DNA of 64,000 bases, from assembly GCA_030834985.1 (NCBI GenBank), contig JAUQWV010000003.1:143387-207386 (forward strand), in the 5' to 3' direction. A program made the translations under genes and the position numbers. The notes under the pieces are model-generated. The model was not told the DNA's origin and ran no database searches. It saw nothing but the letters and a program-made list of their open reading frames with translations. This document shows, one piece after another, positions 17,714-25,831 of this stretch (positions are counted from its first letter, which is position 1; the number at the start of each line of letters is the position of its first letter). This DNA is from Candidatus Dojkabacteria bacterium. Its GTDB lineage: Bacteria > Patescibacteriota > Dojkabacteria > J137.

Positions 17714-18175
17714 ATGGCAAGAGTTTCGCAATTAGTTCGAAAGGGAAGAAGTCCAAAAACGAAGACTGTAAGGTTTAAAGGACTATTATTCTCTGAAGAC
17801 GATAAAATTAAATCAATGCATTTTAACTTCAACGGAGTTAAAAATAAGTACTACATGCGACCAAATCCATTTAGAAGAGGCGTATGTATTGCAGTTAAAA
17901 CTATGACACCTAAGAAACCAAACTCTGCTTTACGAAAAATCGCAAGAGTAAGGTTATCTAATAAACAGGTAGTAACTGCATATATTCCTGGAGAAGGTCA
18001 TAACCTTCAGGAGCACTCTGTTGTATTGTTAAGAGCAGGAAAAAAACCTGACCTACCTGGAGTAAAATACCAAGTTGTTAGAGGCGTTTATGATGCTGCT
18101 CCTGTTGAAAATAGAAGACAGGCTCGAAGCCGATACGGTCGAAAGAAACCAAAAGCAGGCGAAAAGAAAGCATAA
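17714..18175 (+). CDS. rpsL: 30S ribosomal protein S12, with an ~25-30 aa N-terminal-region insertion
   Basis: [12 protein letters not shown] ... [11 protein letters not shown] ... [11 protein letters not shown] ... conserved. 153 aa versus ~124 aa typical. Confidence 0.93.
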
Positions 18176-18268
18176 GACACCATAACTAAATTTAAAAGAA
18201 GAGTATTCTCGGCGAAAGCTAAGGAGAACTTTGTTTTAAACATAATTCTTAATTATTAAATAATATAA

Positions 18269-18736
18269 ATGAGAGGAAAAAGAGCACCGGTAAGACCAAT
18301 CAAACCGGACGAAGTACATAATAGTGTATTAGTTTCAAAATTCATTAACTACGTAATGTACGATGGTCAAAAGCAGACTGCTAGAACTATTGTATATAAA
18401 GCAATAGAGGATTTAGCAAATAAAACAAAGACTAAAGGTACTGAAGCTTTAGAAAAAGCTATTGAAAACGCAAGACCAAAGATCGAAGTTAGAAGCAGAA
18501 GAATTGGAGGAGCAAACTTTCAAGTTCCTGTTCCAGTAAGCGAAAAAAGACAAACTGCATTAGCCTTAAAATGGATTTTAGAAGCAGCAAGAGCTAGCAG
18601 AAAGAATACTGAATTCTGGGTTGTATTATCTAAAGAATTGCAAAATGCCTATAACAAAGAAGGTTCTGCTATTAAGAAAAAAGAGGAAGTTCTAAGAATG
18701 GCAGAAGCTAATAAAGCATTTGCTCAATTTGCTTAA
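18269..18736 (+). CDS. rpsG: 30S ribosomal protein S7
   Basis: 155 aa with an S7 signature (MRGKRAP...YDGQKQTA...). Confidence 0.93.
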   Translation: MRGKRAPVRPIKPDEVHNSVLVSKFINYVMYDGQKQTARTIVYKAIEDLANKTKTKGTEALEKAIENARPKIEVRSRRIGGANFQVPVPVSEKRQTALALKWILEAARASRKNTEFWVVLSKELQNAYNKEGSAIKKKEEVLRMAEANKAFAQFA

Positions 18737-18775
18737 GAAGAATTAAAGAATAAAGTTAAAAATAAAGCTGTTTCA

Positions 18776-18808
18776 AGCCCCGACCCCAAGGCCGGGGCTT
18801 TCTTTCGC
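18776..18808 (+). terminator. Rho-independent terminator after rpsG
   Basis: Stem AGCCCCG/CGGGGCT followed by TTCTTTCG. No fusA/tuf downstream. Confidence 0.5.
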
Positions 18809-18957
18809 GATTAATACTTTCGATTTCAATCTTATTTTCGAGCTACCAGTCAGCAGCAGCTGTCTTATTGCCCCTAAAACACTGCGCTACCTTGATATTA
18901 GCGCCCACAATATGTTAGAATATTTTGACATTAATTCATAATTGTTAAATTAAACGC

Positions 18958-19734
18958 ATGGGGATCAAAATAGATAAATCCGTCAAGAACTTCTTATTAG
19001 ATTTTGGACTGACAGATAAAGAAATCACTGTTTATACAACCCTCCTTAAAACAGGACCCAATACAATTATGAATCTGGCTAGAGAAACTAGCATCAAAAG
19101 ATCCACTACACACAATACTGTTGAGGAATTAATCAAAAAAGGATTAGTAAGCCAAACAAATTATGGTGAAAGAAGAATGGTTATAGCAGAAGACCCTGAT
19201 AAATTAAAGTTTCTAATGGAGCAGAAGAAGTGGGATATTAATAAACTAGAGAAGAACTTACCTGATACAATACAGGCTATACAAGGATTAGTACCAGCAA
19301 GTACAGATGTTAATGATGTCGAAGTTAAATATTTTACAGGAGAAAAAGGTGTACAAATGATATATACTGAAGCACTAAGAGCTCAAGAACTACGATCCTA
19401 TGCAAATATTCAGAAAATATTTGAAGTCTTTCCCGATAATTCTGAGATTTTTAGACAAGCTCATATAACGAATAAAGACTTAAAATTATGGGAAATAGTT
19501 GAAAATTCTGAAGTAGCGAAAGAATACGCTTCAAAATATGCCGAAAAAGATAGGTATCATTACAAACTTTCCCCTGTATTATTTACTGCTGGAGCATTAG
19601 ATATATTGATCTATGACGGTAAAGTCGCTGTAATCACTGTTAAAGAAGGGGTTACTGGAGTCGTGATCTCTAATAAAGATTATTACAATAATACAGCTGC
19701 CGTATTCGACTTTGTATGGAGTGCTCTTGACTGA
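18958..19734 (+). CDS. TrmB-like HTH transcriptional regulator (paralog 1)
   Basis: N-terminal winged HTH (FGLTDKEITVYTTLLKTGPNTIMNLARETSIKRSTTHNTVEELIKKGLV) followed by a conserved RRMVIAEDPDKL segment typical of the TrmB architecture. Confidence 0.55.
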   Translation: MGIKIDKSVKNFLLDFGLTDKEITVYTTLLKTGPNTIMNLARETSIKRSTTHNTVEELIKKGLVSQTNYGERRMVIAEDPDKLKFLMEQKKWDINKLEKNLPDTIQAIQGLVPASTDVNDVEVKYFTGEKGVQMIYTEALRAQELRSYANIQKIFEVFPDNSEIFRQAHITNKDLKLWEIVENSEVAKEYASKYAEKDRYHYKLSPVLFTAGALDILIYDGKVAVITVKEGVTGVVISNKDYYNNTAAVFDFVWSALD

Positions 19735-20858
19735 TACACCCAATAGCTAGGTTTAAGAGCCCCTCCCAACTGGCGCTTAAATTTATTTAAATCTGAAAAT
19801 TCTGATCCACCTAGATTAACGTACTCATAGCCTTTCTGCTTTAAAAGGCTAAATAATTCTACATAAGCAAATGTTGACATAGCAGACAAGCCAATTCTTT
19901 CGTCTGCATTCCATACCGCTCCTGTTAAATTGGTTAGAACACTTTCATCTCGAAGTGTGAATGGTGTATAAAGCGCAAACGTATCTGGCGATATACTTTC
20001 GCCAACAAAAACAGATACTGGAAATTTTCCAAGAAATCCTAAAAGCCCTACGCAAGCTTCATTCTTTAGAATTTTTGAGCTTATCGAATTGATATGGTCT
20101 TCTATTGAAGAACCCGCTCGTTTACCTTGCCTAGTAAGCATATCAAAATGAGAAGTAATGACATCTAAAGCCTGGACTGCATTCTTCCCTGTTAGAGATT
20201 CTAGCCTATATTTTATATCATTTCTTTGTAAAAAATTTCTAAATCTGGCATATGCATATTTAACTTTTTTGCCGCTATCACCCTCTAAATGATGTATTTT
20301 GTTTACTCTTCTTTCCTTACCATCTAAAATTACTACATCATCTATCTTAACTAAGCAATTATTAAATGTTTCGTCTTCCTCAGGAGATTCTGGACAGAAA
20401 GGATATTCTTTAACTGGCAAATAACCTTTTTTTATAAACTCAACATATAGATTTAAATCCAGATATCTAATATATACTCCCTGAATAGGTAATTCCTTAT
20501 TGCTAAATACTCTTTGTATAAAGGTATTTACCTTATCAACAATAGCAGATCCGGTTGGAGCAACAACAAACAAATAACCATTCTTATCATCTTCTTTCTT
20601 TTTAAAAAAGCTTATTGAAAAAATCGATTTACCATCTTCGTAAACTAATCCATATTTATGAAGAGAACTAGCGCCTCGAGGATTATTTCCATTCGAATAC
20701 AGTGAAAAGGCTAATGAGCTAATTCCGAAATTTCCATTTTTATATTTATTAACTTTTTCGAAATCTTTATCTGGGTTGAACGGAGATACATGTGTTAATT
20801 CTTTCAACAGGAATTCTTCAACTTTGTCTCTGTCTGTCATAAAAGCATTATAAATCAA
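19683..20858 (-). CDS. Hypothetical protein, possibly a GNAT-fold aminoacyl-transferase-like (FemAB / MprF-C-like) protein
   Basis: The C-terminal YEYVNLGGSEFSDLNKFKRQLGG resembles the Y.Y.fGG....FKr.fGG signature of FemAB/DUF2156-type GNAT folds. Weak. Confidence 0.3.
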   Translation of the reverse strand: MIYNAFMTDRDKVEEFLLKELTHVSPFNPDKDFEKVNKYKNGNFGISSLAFSLYSNGNNPRGASSLHKYGLVYEDGKSIFSISFFKKKEDDKNGYLFVVAPTGSAIVDKVNTFIQRVFSNKELPIQGVYIRYLDLNLYVEFIKKGYLPVKEYPFCPESPEEDETFNNCLVKIDDVVILDGKERRVNKIHHLEGDSGKKVKYAYARFRNFLQRNDIKYRLESLTGKNAVQALDVITSHFDMLTRQGKRAGSSIEDHINSISSKILKNEACVGLLGFLGKFPVSVFVGESISPDTFALYTPFTLRDESVLTNLTGAVWNADERIGLSAMSTFAYVELFSLLKQKGYEYVNLGGSEFSDLNKFKRQLGGALKPSYWVYQSRALHTKSNTAAVLL

Positions 20859-20895
20859 GGGATTATATCATATTTAAGATATATTAGTTTTACCT

Positions 20896-21690
20896 CTAAT
20901 CAATGCTTTCCCAGACAATATTGTGCAAGTATATTAGAAATTTACTTATCTCTATAGAATTTAGCTTTAAGGAAAATGGAGTTGTATGCTTAAAGTTAGA
21001 AAAAATAATATAAGATTTTGTTATAAAAATATCTGTTAATTCACTTTCTCTTAATAAGGGAGAATCTTTTATAACTTTAAATTCATAGTCAGTGTAATCA
21101 TAAGCTTTTATATTTTCTTTAAGCTCCCTAACCGAATCACCGTCTATGACCAAGTCTTTGAACTTACGCTTCTTATTTAATCTATTAGCCTGCGATTGCA
21201 GAAATAAACCCTTTGGAAATGTCTTATAGTAGTCATCCAATCTACATATTGAATATACTTCTGGAATATTGACAGTAGATCTGTATAATCTAAGAACCTC
21301 CTTCTTACCTAAATACAAATCTATACTACTGTCTAGAAATGACCCTGTTAACTTTAGAAGATTTAACATTTTATTTAGCGATTCTTGTGCAGATACAATA
21401 GTTTGAATCCTATCTTCTAGAATATTAAGGTTATTATGAAGAAATCTATCGAGACTACCTAACGATTTAGCCCTATACATCTTTGTCCCAGATTTGTCTT
21501 TTACAAAATAAGCTATCAGCCCTAAATCATCAAGACTATTTAAACTCTCAATTAGAGTACTTCTAGCCAAGCCTAGAACTAAGACTAATTCTTTTATTGT
21601 ACGTTCTCTAGAAAGGAGTAAGGCATATATTCTAGCTTGAGTTTTAGAGAGTCCAATCTGGTTTAGTAATTTTAATATCTCACTATCCAT
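20896..21690 (-). CDS. TrmB-like HTH transcriptional regulator (paralog 2). Start placed at MDSEILK (the longer ORF extends to 21735)
   Basis: N-terminal HTH (LGLSKTQARIYALLLSRERTIKELVLVLGLARSTLIESL). Confidence 0.5.
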   Translation of the reverse strand: MDSEILKLLNQIGLSKTQARIYALLLSRERTIKELVLVLGLARSTLIESLNSLDDLGLIAYFVKDKSGTKMYRAKSLGSLDRFLHNNLNILEDRIQTIVSAQESLNKMLNLLKLTGSFLDSSIDLYLGKKEVLRLYRSTVNIPEVYSICRLDDYYKTFPKGLFLQSQANRLNKKRKFKDLVIDGDSVRELKENIKAYDYTDYEFKVIKDSPLLRESELTDIFITKSYIIFSNFKHTTPFSLKLNSIEISKFLIYLHNIVWESID

Positions 21691-21708
21691 ATCTATTATA
21701 AATAAACT

Positions 21709-21729
21709 GTGTCGGTAATTGCCCGACAC
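21709..21729. promoter_or_regulatory. Operator-like inverted repeat in a divergent promoter region
   Basis: GTGTCGG-taattgc-CCGACAC, perfect 7-bp arms, between TrmB-like paralog 2 and XRE gene 1. Confidence 0.35.
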
Positions 21730-21775
21730 TGGCATTGACCAGTATTATAGCAAAAACTTATAGGCTGTCGAAGCT

Positions 21776-22033
21776 ATGGAACAAGGCAAAAGAATTAAAT
21801 ACTTTCGCAAACGAGCAAACGTTACGCAACTCGAGCTTGAGCTACGGATTAATGCCTCATTTGGGAGTATAAGTAGAATGGAGACTGGATTGACTAATCC
21901 TACCAAAGAAACATTATTTGCCATAGCAAATGCATTAAACCTAACAGGTTTAGAAACTGCTATTTTATTCGGGATCGATATCACTTCTTATAACATTTCA
22001 CAAAGTCAGAATTTAGAAATCAAACTTCCGTAA
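21776..22033 (+). CDS. XRE-family (Cro/C1-type) HTH small regulator, copy 1
   Basis: IKYFRKRANVTQLELELRINASFGSISRME..LTNPTKETLFAIANAL is a classic XRE HTH. Paralog of 23016..23300. Confidence 0.7.
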   Translation: MEQGKRIKYFRKRANVTQLELELRINASFGSISRMETGLTNPTKETLFAIANALNLTGLETAILFGIDITSYNISQSQNLEIKLP

Positions 22034-22081
22034 ACAAACTCTATTTTTTTAATTTAAAACAAATCCTGGATCGTATTTTTA

Positions 22082-22852
22082 TTAGAAGCTTGGAGTAGGA
22101 ACTACTTCCCACATAGTCTTAAATAAAGAAATACTGGTCTGTATTATCGGCTTACTATATATTACTAGACCATTTATATCTTTATCCTCCTCATAAACAA
22201 GTGCTATACCTTTAGCAGTTATCATATAGTCTAAAACATCAAAGTTATCCTCACACTTTAAGAATTTACAGCTATAAGTAGGGTATTTAAGCATTGATTT
22301 CACAAACTCATTCATAATCTTCCCATTAATTATTATGTCTTTAAGTATCATCCCACCTTCTAATGCGGTCTGAAATTTATTTACATTTTCGGGGAATAGA
22401 TCTGCTGTAAAGACAGAATTAACATAAGAATAAACTTCTTTGGATGTTAATACGAAATCATAAAGTCGCCTACAATTTTCTATTCCTTCAAACATCCTAA
22501 TATCTGCGAATGTAGTTTCTTTGAGATTATTAACAGAAGCATTAATAGAGCTAATTAAGTTCAGAACATTACCTTTTCTTCTTTTTACCTCTAGCTCTTG
22601 CTGTTCTATGAGACTTCTAAACCTTTCTGGATCTTCTGCTATTATATGTCTTCTATTAGTTTTCTTTATTTCACTTACTAAGCGTTTATCTAATAAGGAA
22701 CCAACAACCATATGGACTGTTGACCTATTTATTTTTGTATATTTAGATATACTTAAAATTGTACTTGGCCCCCTTTTAAGCAAGAAAAGATAAACCTTTG
22801 ATTCATTCTGAGTTAACCCTAAATCAGTTAAACTTACTTCTAAATTATTCAT
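22082..22852 (-). CDS. TrmB-like HTH transcriptional regulator (paralog 3)
   Basis: LGLTQNESKVYLFLLKRGPSTILSISKYTKINRSTVHMVVGSLLDKRLV plus RRHIIAEDPERF. Confidence 0.55.
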   Translation of the reverse strand: MNNLEVSLTDLGLTQNESKVYLFLLKRGPSTILSISKYTKINRSTVHMVVGSLLDKRLVSEIKKTNRRHIIAEDPERFRSLIEQQELEVKRRKGNVLNLISSINASVNNLKETTFADIRMFEGIENCRRLYDFVLTSKEVYSYVNSVFTADLFPENVNKFQTALEGGMILKDIIINGKIMNEFVKSMLKYPTYSCKFLKCEDNFDVLDYMITAKGIALVYEEDKDINGLVIYSKPIIQTSISLFKTMWEVVPTPSF

Positions 22853-22948
22853 TGTATAAGGTTTACTAACATTTAAAAGATATTAATAAGCAAATGACAG
22901 ATATGTACAGGTTATTAGCAAGTTAGTAACGTCAATCTACTCCTAACA

Positions 22949-22975
22949 TTTTGTTGCATAAATTTTGCAACAAAA
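22949..22975. promoter_or_regulatory. Operator-like inverted repeat in a divergent promoter region
   Basis: TTTTGTTGC-ataaatttt-GCAACAAAA, 9-bp arms, between TrmB-like paralog 3 and XRE gene 2. Confidence 0.35.
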
Positions 22976-23015
22976 TATATCCTGATTTTAGCATAGTAAG
23001 TAAAATCCTTATATT

Positions 23016-23300
23016 ATGCTAACAATAGGTCAAAGAATAAAACACTTCCGTAAACGAGCAAACGTTACGCAACTCGAGCTTGAGCTACGGATTAATGCCT
23101 CATTTGGGAGTATAAGTAGAATGGAAAATGGGTTAACTAACCCTACAAAAGAAACCCTGTTTGCGATTGCAAACGCATTAAACCTAACAGGACTAGAAAC
23201 TGCTATTCTTTTTGGGATTGACATAGGGTCTTCCAGCGTTCTACAAAGTGAAGATTTAGAAATTAAAGTTCTGCAATCTGATAATATTCATTCAATTTGA
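23016..23300 (+). CDS. XRE-family HTH small regulator, copy 2
   Basis: N-terminal 60 aa nearly identical to copy 1. Divergent C-terminal tail. 3' end overlaps the Elp3-like gene convergently. Confidence 0.7.
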   Translation: MLTIGQRIKHFRKRANVTQLELELRINASFGSISRMENGLTNPTKETLFAIANALNLTGLETAILFGIDIGSSSVLQSEDLEIKVLQSDNIHSI

Positions 23301-25092
23301 AACCTCTTTTGTCGTAATATTCTCTTGTACCAATGCTTGAGATCACTGCAAGTTTAGTAAAGCCTTTTTCTTTAGCTATCTCTTTAGCTTTTTGTATAAG
23401 TTGAGTGCCCAAGCCTAGGTGCTGCGCTTGTCCGCTGGAGGTTTTATCGAATTCTAGGCTTGGGCCATAAACATGGACTTCACGAATAATGGCACAATCG
23501 TCTAGCTCATTTGTAATTATATTCTCTTTGCTTTTAGGCAAAGATAACCTCAAAAAGCCTGCAATTTCATTTTTAGCAGTTATAAACTGTAGGAATAGCT
23601 CATTAGCTATTTCTGTTGAATAGGGCACAATATCAAGCTTTAAATCTTCAAATTTTAGGTTCCTAAACTTAACTTCCCGCGCTCGAATATTTTGATTCTT
23701 GCGGCCTTCCTTTGCTAGTTTATATTCAATAACTTCTCGAAGATTTGTAGTTTTATTGCCGTCTGCAATCTCTGTAGATGGAATATCCCTAATAATTCTT
23801 GTCAGACGGCAATACTGAGGAGTTGCCTCTATACAATCAGCTATTAGATTTATAAGCTGTTGAGTAGTATATGGCTTGTATTTACCTTCTTGCCAATAGT
23901 TATATAATTCAGTATTTTTAATAATTGAAGTAGGGTAGATTTTCAGCTCATCAGGCTTATATTGTTCACTTTCAAATAGTTCTTTATATACTTTCAAATC
24001 AATTTCAGGAGTCGCTCCATACAAATTAGGCATTATGTGAGCATGGATTTTAAAACCGCCTGCACGAAGCAGCTGGAAGGCCCGTGAAGTTTCTGCACGA
24101 TGTTCCCCGCGCTTATTTAAATCACTTATCCTATCATCTAGAGTTTGGATTCCTAGTTGTATTTTTGTTGCGCCAAGCTTACGCAAGTCCAGAACGTCTG
24201 CGGGAGTAATTGTATCTGGCCTGGTCTCTAAAACCAAACCTACACAACGGCATGAAGATTTTGAGTTTTCGTCCTGAACATTAATCAGATCATTCCACTC
24301 GATATCTTTTTCTTCAATAATCTTTGCCTTAAAAGCCTCTTTAAATTCCTTTGTTTGAATTAACTGATTATATGGTTTATTACCATAAATCTTACGTAAA
24401 TCAGTATTGATATCGTTTTTTAAATCATTTTCTATATTTATACCTTTTAAGTCTTCCAGATCGGACATGTTTTGATGAAATACATTGTCATTATCATGGA
24501 GCCTGCTAAATTCGTTCATTGCTCTAAAACACTCATGAATGAACCAAATCTTGTATTTTTTTGGGTAATAGCTCCATGTTCCGCCTAATATGAGTAATTC
24601 AATTTTCTGAGTAGGGTGCCCAATATTTTTAAGGGCCTGTAGTCGATTAAAAACCTGAGCATAAGGGCTAAAGCGGTTCATTAAAGCACGCTGGGCACCC
24701 GGCTCTGTCGCAATATAGCTTTTAGGCATTCGCACATCATTTGGACAAAATACACACTGGCCTGGACATGCAAATGGTTTAGTAAGCACTGTTACTGTAG
24801 TTACGCCTGAAACCGTTCGCATAGGTTTCAATTTTATTTGGTCAATAATTCTTTCTAGCCCACTAATATCATTACCTGATAGCTTAATACCTTCAATACT
24901 ACCTACTTTTATAAAGTGATTTATACCTGCAATAACCTGATCCCTGCCAAAAATCTCATTTTTATCCTTTGGATATTTTCTTAAAATTTTATCTAAAGTC
25001 TTAAGATTAAACTTTTTGGCACTTAAAATAGCGGCAACAATAGAAGCTAAATCTGATTTGTATTTTTCGATATTAAATTGGTAATTCTGCAT
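23263..25092 (-). CDS. Elp3-like radical SAM + GNAT protein (tRNA wobble-uridine carboxymethyl/acetyl-transferase homologue)
   Basis: Radical-SAM cluster motif CPGQCVFCP followed by SYIATEPGAQRA. C-terminal GNAT with HVYGPSLEF..QAQHLGLGTQLI..ISSIGTREYYDKRGF, matching the Elp3 C-terminus pattern. Confidence 0.8.
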   Translation of the reverse strand: MQNYQFNIEKYKSDLASIVAAILSAKKFNLKTLDKILRKYPKDKNEIFGRDQVIAGINHFIKVGSIEGIKLSGNDISGLERIIDQIKLKPMRTVSGVTTVTVLTKPFACPGQCVFCPNDVRMPKSYIATEPGAQRALMNRFSPYAQVFNRLQALKNIGHPTQKIELLILGGTWSYYPKKYKIWFIHECFRAMNEFSRLHDNDNVFHQNMSDLEDLKGINIENDLKNDINTDLRKIYGNKPYNQLIQTKEFKEAFKAKIIEEKDIEWNDLINVQDENSKSSCRCVGLVLETRPDTITPADVLDLRKLGATKIQLGIQTLDDRISDLNKRGEHRAETSRAFQLLRAGGFKIHAHIMPNLYGATPEIDLKVYKELFESEQYKPDELKIYPTSIIKNTELYNYWQEGKYKPYTTQQLINLIADCIEATPQYCRLTRIIRDIPSTEIADGNKTTNLREVIEYKLAKEGRKNQNIRAREVKFRNLKFEDLKLDIVPYSTEIANELFLQFITAKNEIAGFLRLSLPKSKENIITNELDDCAIIREVHVYGPSLEFDKTSSGQAQHLGLGTQLIQKAKEIAKEKGFTKLAVISSIGTREYYDKRGFKLNEYYQIAEL

Positions 25093-25144
25093 TGGGTAAT
25101 TTTAACACGCACTTCTGATACAATATCAGTAGTTATTTATTTGT

Positions 25145-25831
25145 ATGGACCTTTATTCTACTTACGCAGAGGATTTCTCAAAAACAAGGCAAGCTCCATG
25201 GGATGGATGGAAAAAGACACTTAAATATATTAATTCGCTTACCAAACCTAAAGTATTAGATTTAGGCTGCGGAAATGGCCGTTTTTTAAAGTTTTTGGTT
25301 AATTCTGGTGTAAACTTGGGTGAATATACTGGTGTAGATAATTCATCTGAACTTTTAAAGATGACCGATGACTTTATGCATCAAATTCAAGCAACTAATC
25401 GGTTATCTAAATTTGAGCTTTTAAATTTAGACTTTGAGGACTTAAAGTGGGGTACCCATATAAACCAAACCTACAACCTGATAGTAGCATTTGGCATTAC
25501 TCATCACTTAAAAACAGTAGAATCGCGAAGACAATTTTTTAATACAATAAATTTCTTGTTAGAGAAAGACGGATTTTTGATTGTTACTTTCTGGGAATTC
25601 CTAAAAATTGATAGATACAAAGAGAAGTTGACGCCTGTAGTTATTGAAAGTTCACAAAATGATTTTGAGATGACATTTGGTACAAATGGAGCAAAGAGAT
25701 TTTGTCATTACTATAATCCGCTAGAGATTATTGAACTAACTAGCCATCTTCCATTAAAAATAATGGAAGAATATAACGAAGATGGAGTAGAAAATAACCA
25801 AAACCATTATATTGTTTACAAAAAACTTTAA
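25145..25831 (+). CDS. Trm9/ALKBH8-like SAM-dependent methyltransferase (class I)
   Basis: N-terminal Y..YAEDFSKTRQAPW (Trm9-type Y..IA..FS.TR.kPW), VLDLGCGNGRFL motif I, and a later ITHHL...W motif resembling Trm9 HHW. Confidence 0.6.
   Translation: MDLYSTYAEDFSKTRQAPWDGWKKTLKYINSLTKPKVLDLGCGNGRFLKFLVNSGVNLGEYTGVDNSSELLKMTDDFMHQIQATNRLSKFELLNLDFEDLKWGTHINQTYNLIVAFGITHHLKTVESRRQFFNTINFLLEKDGFLIVTFWEFLKIDRYKEKLTPVVIESSQNDFEMTFGTNGAKRFCHYYNPLEIIELTSHLPLKIMEEYNEDGVENNQNHYIVYKKL

Follow-up and report, generated by a model that had tools for sequence, protein, structure and literature searches.

The archaeal sugar-sensing regulators TrmB and TrmBL1 act as dimers on palindromic sites, and at sites that overlap promoters they bring about autoregulation or repression. 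Both carry an extra sugar-binding subdomain that is absent from TrmBL2 (PMC4877046). The latter is a tetramer of high constitutive abundance, the DNA binding of which is largely non-specific, and it coats DNA in this non-specific manner as a chromatin protein (PMC4877046). The locus considered here lies in a 64-kb stretch of DNA from a Candidatus Dojkabacteria chromosome (the window) and contains three TrmB-like genes, T0, T1 and T2. Near-identical proteins in databases bear names that likewise indicate Candidatus Dojkabacteria (WS6, Patescibacteria). T1 and T2 are each encoded on the minus strand and are paired with a divergent small XRE gene on the plus strand (X1 and X2 respectively), giving two modules, a module being a divergent T (TrmB-like) and X (small XRE) pair with a palindrome between. 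Both modules, the palindrome in the intergenic region of each, and the third TrmB-like gene upstream had been picked out in an earlier, sequence-only reading of this DNA, and all are present exactly as it described; no further T or X gene occurs within the window. In the model favoured here, at a probability of roughly 0.6, a slot that is fixed in the chromosome holds an array of variable copy number, each module of which is self-contained; each T would regulate its own gene and gate the adjacent X.

The window was compared with about 12 syntenic relatives that were found through look-ups of X and T homologues, within a collection of 40 fetched loci (~300 kb in total; collection loci bear L numbers). 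To the left of the array the relatives share rpoC-rpsL-rpsG-T0, and to the right the gene for Elp3 together with that for a methyltransferase, with the exception of L036, the contig of which ends before Elp3. This comparison of synteny, which the sequence-only reading had proposed, reveals a slot that is fixed in position and variable in module content. Besides variable cargo, the slot between T0 and Elp3 holds a single module in L015, L019, L021, L022, L023 and L026, two in the window, L013, L018 and L036, and three in L014 and, with one of them decayed, in L024. The G + C content of the array is slightly below that of its flanks. In L036 (195–999) the array is followed by a 99-residue XRE gene, a 79-residue XRE gene on the opposite strand and a 66-residue open reading frame, and the right border there may differ from that of the other loci.

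The T genes of the modules cluster by pairwise identity into at least five types. The window and L036 both have the order C-E, L013 has A-C, L014 A-B-C, L018 A-B and L024 an A remnant followed by B-C. The single modules are of type C in L019, type D in L015, type B in L021 and L022, and an A-like type in L023. Orthologues of T0 are present in all of the syntenic relatives (57–99% identity). Those of T1 (type C) are found in L013, L014, L019 and L024 at 47–52%, and those of T2 (type E) are P0024 at 94% and P0025 at 59%. T1 and T2 are only 21–24% identical to each other, depending on the alignment, so that the sequence-only reading was right to regard the TrmB-like partners as diverged. Because the orthologues in other genomes are closer than T1 is to T2, the partner types predate the split of the compared genomes.

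Gain and loss of modules can be followed between close relatives. L014 and L018 share ~89–92% DNA identity across the locus, and when they are aligned two blocks overlap by 87 nucleotides (nt) inside the HTH (helix–turn–helix)-coding region of X; the second X of L018 combines the promoter and 5′ end of the second X of L014 with the 3′ half of the third. So clean a junction is what homologous recombination between X repeats leaves on adding or removing exactly one module. The other module losses are deletions that leave remnants. L039, with 95% identity to the window right of the array and 87% left of it, is missing window positions 20985–21879 and retains T1 and X1 only as their 3′ ends, and in L024 the type-A T gene has shrunk to a 63-residue remnant. 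L019 and L014 have flanks that are 92–94% identical and differ in their cargo, with the left breakpoint inside T0. The 3′ third of T0 is exchanged between these two loci (at ~3003 of L014) together with the overlapping cargo gene, U-short or U-long. As a result T0 is a mosaic, with ~94% nucleotide identity in its 5′ part and only 58% amino acid identity overall.

The palindrome of the first module, GTGTCGGtaattgcCCGACAC, has the form GTGTCGG-N7-CCGACAC with a core of TGTCG-N9-CGACA. The second, TTTTGTTGCataaattttGCAACAAAA at 22949–22975, extends to arms of 11 nt, ATTTTGTTGCA-N7-TGCAACAAAAT, and has a core of TGTTG-N11-CAACA. In mononucleotide shuffles of each intergenic region an arm of 7 was reached in 212 of 5000 and an arm of 11 in 11 of 5000, so each palindrome on its own is only moderately unlikely. 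They are nevertheless not due to chance, because they are conserved in the orthologous modules of other genomes. The open reading frame of T1 extends to an upstream ATG at 21735, while its homologues and orthologues begin at the position of 21690; palindrome 1 is therefore non-coding, and its location inside the longer frame is the reason that the automatic annotation of T1 varies between 264 and 279 residues. In orthologous palindromes the sequences of the arms are conserved and the loops vary, which fits protein recognition rather than RNA pairing. An RNA element in the intergenic regions was considered and rejected, as Rfam gave no match better than E 0.58 and the arms are conserved rather than compensatory.

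The half-site and its spacing follow the type of T: TGTCG-N9-CGACA in type C, TGTTG-N11-CAACA in types B and E, and TGTTG-N12-CAACA in type A, with the palindromes centred ~40–60 nt upstream of the X start. Across the 40 fetched loci TGTCG-N9-CGACA is confined to type-C intergenic regions (10 out of 10). Sites of the form TGTTG-N11/12-CAACA occur in the intergenic regions of type A, B and E modules and upstream of T0 in L013, and in L037 a distant TrmB-like gene, the divergent neighbour of which is not an XRE gene, has a TGTTG-type core 25–45 nt upstream of where it probably starts. The sequence-only reading had proposed a search for further copies of the two palindromes; neither recurs elsewhere in the window, even when one mismatch is allowed in the 10-base core. 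The recognition helix of T reads NR(S/T)T.H in most types and RST(L/I)(I/V)E in type C, and half-site and spacing covary with this helix, while the HTH of X is unchanged across the module types. Since the palindromes track the type and helix of T against a constant X, they are assigned to the T proteins, an assignment that is considered likely. Beyond the -10 elements and the type-specific inverted repeats around them no motif is common to all of the intergenic regions, and therefore no site for X is proposed.

Consensus scans predict promoters that the palindromes overlap. The strongest promoter match of the region, on the minus strand at 21771–21744, consists of a TCGACA -35 element, a 16-nt spacer and TGcTATAAT (11/12 with the TG), and is the predicted promoter of T1. 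The predicted start lies ~8 nt before palindrome 1, so that operator 1 would occupy about +8 to +28 of the T1 transcript; the extended -10 is found at the same position in the type-C modules of L013, L014 and L019. Similarly, the predicted extended -10 of T2 (TGcTAAAAT) puts operator 2 at about +6 to +26 of its transcript. In 13 of the 14 modules that were examined the minus strand has an extended -10 of the TGnTATAAT kind. The palindrome falls at ~+6 to +28 of the T transcript in types C, E and B, and over the -35 region in type A. All nine A, B and D modules (9/9) have a plus-strand -10 hexamer, TAGAAT in L026 and otherwise TATAAT, that ends 7–8 nt before the ATG of X, and the predicted -10 of X2 (TAAAAT) ends 10 nt before the ATG, which would make its mRNA nearly leaderless. 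The T and X promoters are thus predicted to be back-to-back and overlapping, with the palindrome covering the region of T initiation and lying shortly before the X -35 element; the overlap of palindromes with promoters, on which the operator interpretation of the sequence-only reading had been made to depend, is upheld at the level of prediction.

In the proposed mechanism the modules would occupy a slot that is fixed in the Candidatus Dojkabacteria chromosome after rpoC-rpsL-rpsG-T0 and before Elp3, and each T, as a dimer or tetramer, would bind the palindrome of its own module. Binding there would place T on or shortly after its own transcription start and shortly before the promoter of X, from which repression of the T gene and gating of the adjacent X would follow. 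The simplest reading is T autorepression combined with T-dependent control of X, either positive or negative, with an effector of T presumably sensed via the C-terminal domain. Judged from their placement and covariation, the palindromes most likely serve TrmBL2-like repressors as operators of their own genes (auto-operators), with the X genes gated by these repressors as well. More speculatively, the X copies, since they all share one recognition surface, could provide one common output acting on targets, with the array as a set of exchangeable inputs. The further suggestion that the X genes are both this common output regulator and the homologous ‘joints’ by which Dojkabacteria populations swap, add and drop TrmBL2-like sensor-repressor cassettes, at a single hotspot beside core genes of transcription and translation, is a tentative one, and on balance doubtful.

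X1 and X2 both belong to the HTH_3 family (PF01381; 45.1 and 45.5 bits respectively, gathering score 23 bits). The two proteins are 82% identical and their DNA 81% (225/277 nt), including a perfectly identical tract of 74 nt. The sequence-only reading had described the copies as near-identical, which holds for the HTH core and fails for the N- and C-terminal ends. At synonymous codons the two copies have an identity of 0.69 in the window and 0.78 in L013, and X genes of type-C modules compared across different genomes only 0.32–0.46 (0.39–0.46 in the comparison of same-type X genes that was set against the window copies). Because identity within a genome far exceeds that between genomes, the likeness of the copies is due to gene conversion and not to recent duplication; the X genes are homogenized within each genome (concerted evolution). 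The HTH is almost invariant and is the same in every module type, and it follows the genome and not the module. Conversion in the window extends 27 nt beyond the X1 stop, over sequence that corresponds to the region of overlap between X2 and Elp3, and therefore X2 was probably the donor.

X2 and Elp3, which are on opposite strands, overlap at their 3′ ends, by the last 38 nt of X2. An overlap of exactly 38 nt between the last X and Elp3 is seen in most genomes (the window, L015, L018, L019 and L021–L024). The conserved XRE tail (…QFDNIY..) is probably constrained by the C-terminus of Elp3, and convergent transcription from the last X into Elp3 is possible. The XRE repeats break short-read assemblies at the array locus: most public assemblies of the same organism (L001–L012) end in or beside them, with contigs of 0.7–3.3 kb, and the 74-nt tract is a likely cause. 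As a stand-alone protein X forms a small family, with 23 clusters in an indexed search of 5.8 billion proteins. Its distant relatives are the N-terminal domains of proteins of 250–270 residues that share the HTH signature …FGSISRIE.G..NPTKETL… at 46–57% identity; the possibility that their C-terminal domains are related to that of T was examined and rejected (E > 0.1). The nearest relatives of the X HTH outside the clade (L025 and L027–L034; for example L029 5825–7882) are often arranged in tandem, with two or three copies in the same direction.

All three T proteins are members of the TrmB family. A hidden Markov model search, which the sequence-only reading had named as a check of this claim, gives 45.6, 30.6 and 50.8 bits for T0, T1 and T2 against PF01978, in each case above the gathering score of 25.6, so the family is not an unrelated one. 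A profile of the T proteins matches structures of TrmBL2 (5bqt, 5box and 5bpd) over nearly the full length (residues 9–252 against 11–261, E 9e-12), and its match to the structure of TrmB is confined to the N-terminal part. The AlphaFold2 (AF2) model of T2 (pLDDT 88.9) consists of a winged HTH, a 36-residue helix (77–112) and an α/β C-terminal domain. Foldseek returns TrmBL2 as the top structural match of this model (E 2e-13), with a C-terminal domain that is PLD/Nuc-like (Nuc/NucT). The long helix for dimerization and a C-terminal domain homologous to that of TrmB/TrmBL2 are accordingly found by both the T2 model and the T profile. Type C, to which T1 belongs, is an outlier: its profile alone matches only winged-HTH structures in the PDB, and against the other T types it aligns over its full length (250 columns, hhalign 99.1%, E 4.5e-19).

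The sugar-sensing architecture of TrmB and TrmBL1 is not found. T1 and T2 have 256–264 residues as compared with ~340 and the second C-terminal sugar-binding subdomain is missing, and the NCBIfam equivalogs for TrmB and TrmBL1 (NF040851 and NF047390) score the T proteins at 25–28 bits against cut-offs of 600–650. A PLD-type nuclease activity was also considered and rejected, as even T0 orthologues do not all have the histidine of the HxK motif; with this catalytic residue variable, nuclease activity is unlikely for the T proteins. They have the short TrmBL2-type architecture of a winged HTH, a long dimerization helix and a non-catalytic PLD-like C-terminal domain.

Several observations weigh against the model of T autoregulation and X gating. 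All of the promoters were predicted from consensus sequences, which are often matched in a genome this AT-rich (23 matches found, 19 expected). The half-sites are 14–17 bp apart from centre to centre, which is unusual for a simple dimer, and there is no clean palindrome in the type-D module of L015, the type-A module of L013 or the module of L021. Within the 64 kb of genome searched there is no target besides the modules themselves, and TrmBL2, the closest solved relative, binds DNA largely non-specifically (PMC4877046). Finally, the distance of the palindrome from the start of X is fixed (about 50–56 nt) and that from the start of T varies, so X could be involved. This fixed position is also what would be expected of a switch like that of CI and Cro, in which X and T would be antagonistic repressors on one palindrome and each module would have two heritable states. 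Such a switch is further suggested by two divergent HTH genes with an operator between overlapping back-to-back predicted promoters, by the predicted leaderless X mRNA, as in that of lambda cI, and by generic matches of X to phage repressor families. The constancy of the X HTH while half-site and spacing change with the T type is, however, difficult to reconcile with it, most modules have one palindrome and no graded operator set, and the same kind of palindrome is found at a TrmB-like gene without an X partner. A bistable switch is consequently regarded as unlikely.

The affinity to TrmBL2, as both the best sequence and the best structural match and a non-specific binder (PMC4877046), raises the possibility that the T proteins are nucleoid-associated proteins of low specificity and that the palindromes are features of the promoter or leader RNA. 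Palindrome 1 is terminator-like on the minus strand, in a hairpin region of -15 kcal/mol (z -3.6), while palindrome 2 lacks a U-tract, and the arms are conserved in sequence, beyond pairing, and covary with the T recognition helix. A core chromatin protein would not be expected to be dispensable, as the module T genes are, and the variable presence of T1 and T2 among close relatives argues against such a role for them; T0 could have one. For the modules this explanation is distinctly improbable. No more probable is the proposal by the sequence-only reading that one module was duplicated and its T and operator then changed in specificity. The modules are indeed homologous repeats of one architecture, with palindromes at equivalent positions upstream of X and a homology between the X genes that continues 27 nt past the X1 stop. 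A recent tandem duplication followed by fast divergence of T and operator, with XRE unchanged, is very unlikely, as T1 and T2 are far less alike than each is to its orthologues elsewhere, alignment of the intergenic regions fails outside the palindrome, and module order differs (C-E in the window, A-C and A-B-C in other genomes); the synonymous-site identity and the 74-nt tract show that the likeness of the X genes is a secondary homogenization, and the duplication itself is an old one.

The least probable of these explanations, and one that can be given hardly any weight, is a toxin–antitoxin (addiction) module or a phage or defence control region, which the sequence-only reading had also put forward. 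Small XRE proteins are often antitoxins or defence regulators, the HipB, RmrA and CapH models match weakly, the locus turns over fast and the C-terminal domain of T has a PLD/Nuc nuclease-like fold. That fold lacks the conserved HxK histidine, X and T are divergent and do not form an operon, effector genes are absent and nothing suggestive of addiction accompanies the decay of modules. Matches to the named families are far below curated cut-offs: the NCBIfam models for type II systems with an XRE antitoxin (HipB, PezA and Y4mF) reach 20–25 bits against cut-offs of 71–290, and no toxin family was detected at the locus. In PADLOC only the HTH portions are matched (by the Csa3, CasR, RmrA and CapH models), with no defence effector or system-specific protein and without any match for U-short or U-long; PHROGs and NCBIfam give only generic HTH matches for the array proteins. 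The phage collection holds no DNA or protein match, and the scan of viral contigs returned one generic XRE at 44% identity. None of these sources supports a phage, plasmid-like or defence origin, and ~12 loci have the array at one conserved position, between rpsG-T0 and Elp3 and with no integrase and no flanking repeats, which is not that of a prophage.

The features of the locus are listed in Table 1.

Table 1. Position of the array, its predicted regulatory elements and the adjoining genes in the window.
Feature	Position	Strand	Remark
rpoC, rpsL, rpsG	end at 18736	+	core genes left of slot
T0, TrmB-like	18958-19734	+	conserved left border of variable slot
U-short (385 aa), tandem-GNAT	19683-20840	-	variable slot cargo
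T1, TrmBL2-like regulator, type C, 264 aa	20896-21690	-	
Operator 1 (putative)	21709-21729	strand-neutral	
Predicted T1 promoter	21744-21771	-	
X1, small XRE/HTH_3 protein, 85 aa	21776-22033	+	
Repeat copy 1 (X1 and 27 nt past its stop)	21784-22060	+	identical tract 21809-21882
T2, TrmBL2-like regulator, type E, 256 aa	22082-22852	-	
Operator 2 (putative)	22948-22976	strand-neutral	
Predicted extended -10 of T2 promoter	22985-22993	-	
Predicted -10 of X2 promoter	23001-23006	+	
X2, small XRE/HTH_3 protein, 94 aa	23016-23300	+	
Repeat copy 2	23027-23303	+	identical tract 23052-23125
Elp3	23263-25092	-	conserved right border of variable slot
Class-I SAM (S-adenosylmethionine) methyltransferase	25145-25831	+	

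The cargo gene of the window, U-short, had been noted as a GNAT-fold unknown next to the cassette. Its AF2 model (pLDDT 96.7) bears this out and shows a tandem-GNAT protein with the fold of FemX and the C-terminal domain of MprF (DUF2156); Foldseek matches 2hqy (BT) at 1e-11, FemX at 1e-9 and MprF. In relatives it is replaced by an unrelated protein of 458–464 residues (U-long) or by FolE2 together with an SDR protein. U-short has ~156 representative homologues at 50% clustering. Its fold includes a likeness to the aminoacyl-tRNA-dependent C-domain of MprF, and the gene lies two modules from the tRNA-modifying Elp3; from its modelled structure it may be an aminoacyl-tRNA-dependent transferase. 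A TATAAT of its own ends 7 nt before its ATG. This, together with gaps of 238–353 nt between the two genes or other cargo in relatives, weakens a T1–U operon, and U-short is a neighbour of the array rather than a proven target.

To the right, the protein that the sequence-only reading had taken for Elp3 is confirmed as a radical SAM and GNAT protein of that family (TIGR01211, 480.6 bits, cut-off 350), whereas the label of its partner, Trm9, is supported by no specific model and the protein is a generic class-I methyltransferase. This divergent pair (23263–25831) is conserved in all of the relatives. To the left, rpsL-rpsG is followed by T0 (window 17714–19734) and not by the fusA-tuf of the classical str operon, in all relatives examined. 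Between rpsG and T0 (window 18737–18957, and the equivalents in L013–L026) there is a terminator-like hairpin and then a strongly conserved T0 promoter with an extended -10 (TGnTAAAAT). The promoter sequence, TG-T-TA(A/G)AAT-ATT(C/T)TGACA, contains an imperfect inverted repeat, TGTTA-N8-TGACA, which could be an operator of T0 itself. Among 64 larger genes of the window a Shine–Dalgarno-like motif is found in 2 and a -10-like hexamer 6–10 nt before the start in 17, including U and Elp3 (20841–20870 and 25093–25122). This distribution suggests that leaderless translation may be widespread in the Dojkabacteria genome.

The genomes of Patescibacteria (the Candidate Phyla Radiation, CPR) are very small and encode few regulators, and to our knowledge almost nothing is known about gene control in these bacteria. 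The protein families at this locus are known, and the arrangement, a strain-variable array of TrmBL2-like and XRE genes with homogenized XRE joints and operators that covary with T, appears to be undescribed. No paper that joins TrmB with Patescibacteria, or that describes divergent TrmB/XRE pairs, was found in the literature. For the TrmBL2-like proteins of bacteria the locus offers a defined and testable operator–regulator code: as the recognition helix changes, so do half-site and spacing. It is also a clear example of a pair in which one gene is homogenized by conversion and its partner is anciently divergent, and of regulatory content that varies between strains with ~87–96% identity in the flanking DNA. 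Should the XRE copies provide a shared output, the array would illustrate a cheap way for a minimal genome to diversify its sensory inputs. Were they in addition the joints for exchange of cassettes, it would amount to a recombination-driven, exchangeable layer of regulatory input in a reduced-genome episymbiont.

Of the known systems, TrmBL2 (TK0471 / PF0496 of the Thermococcales) is similar in domain order, in its length of ~260 residues and in the absence of the sugar-binding subdomain (PMC4877046). Unlike TrmBL2, a single, highly conserved and abundant chromatin protein and global repressor, the T proteins are bacterial (CPR), form several divergent paralogues that are variably present between strains, and are each tied to a specific palindrome in their own promoter region and paired with an XRE gene. 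The sugar-sensing regulators TrmB and TrmBL1 have the N-terminal TrmB HTH (PF01978) in common with T; they differ in the second sugar-binding subdomain, which T lacks, and no genes for sugar transport or metabolism lie near the array. The XRE-HTH proteins of 250–270 residues have C-terminal sensor-like domains of their own and often form co-directional tandems, whereas X consists of an HTH alone, followed by a short tail, and has a TrmB-like partner gene.

The immunity regions of lambdoid phages, with CI and Cro, similarly have divergent HTH regulators, a mosaic makeup and rapid exchange between relatives; their operator DNA in overlapping back-to-back promoters and one leaderless transcript resemble what is predicted for the modules. 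The array is, in contrast, not on a prophage, and its modules lie in tandem at a housekeeping locus; the large partner has a TrmB-type winged HTH and is not an XRE/S24 repressor, most modules have one palindrome, and the small XRE protein does not covary with the operator. Tandem arrays of paralogues under concerted evolution include tuf duplicates, rRNA operons and surface-antigen cassettes. We know of no described case with transcription-factor pairs, and the literature search returned none. In those arrays as in this one the repeats are kept similar by gene conversion and serve unequal or homologous recombination that changes copy number, but here only X is homogenized and its partner T is deeply divergent. 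If the X genes do act as joints and output, the logic would be like that of integrons and shufflons, with transcription-factor pairs as the exchanged units and no dedicated recombinase.

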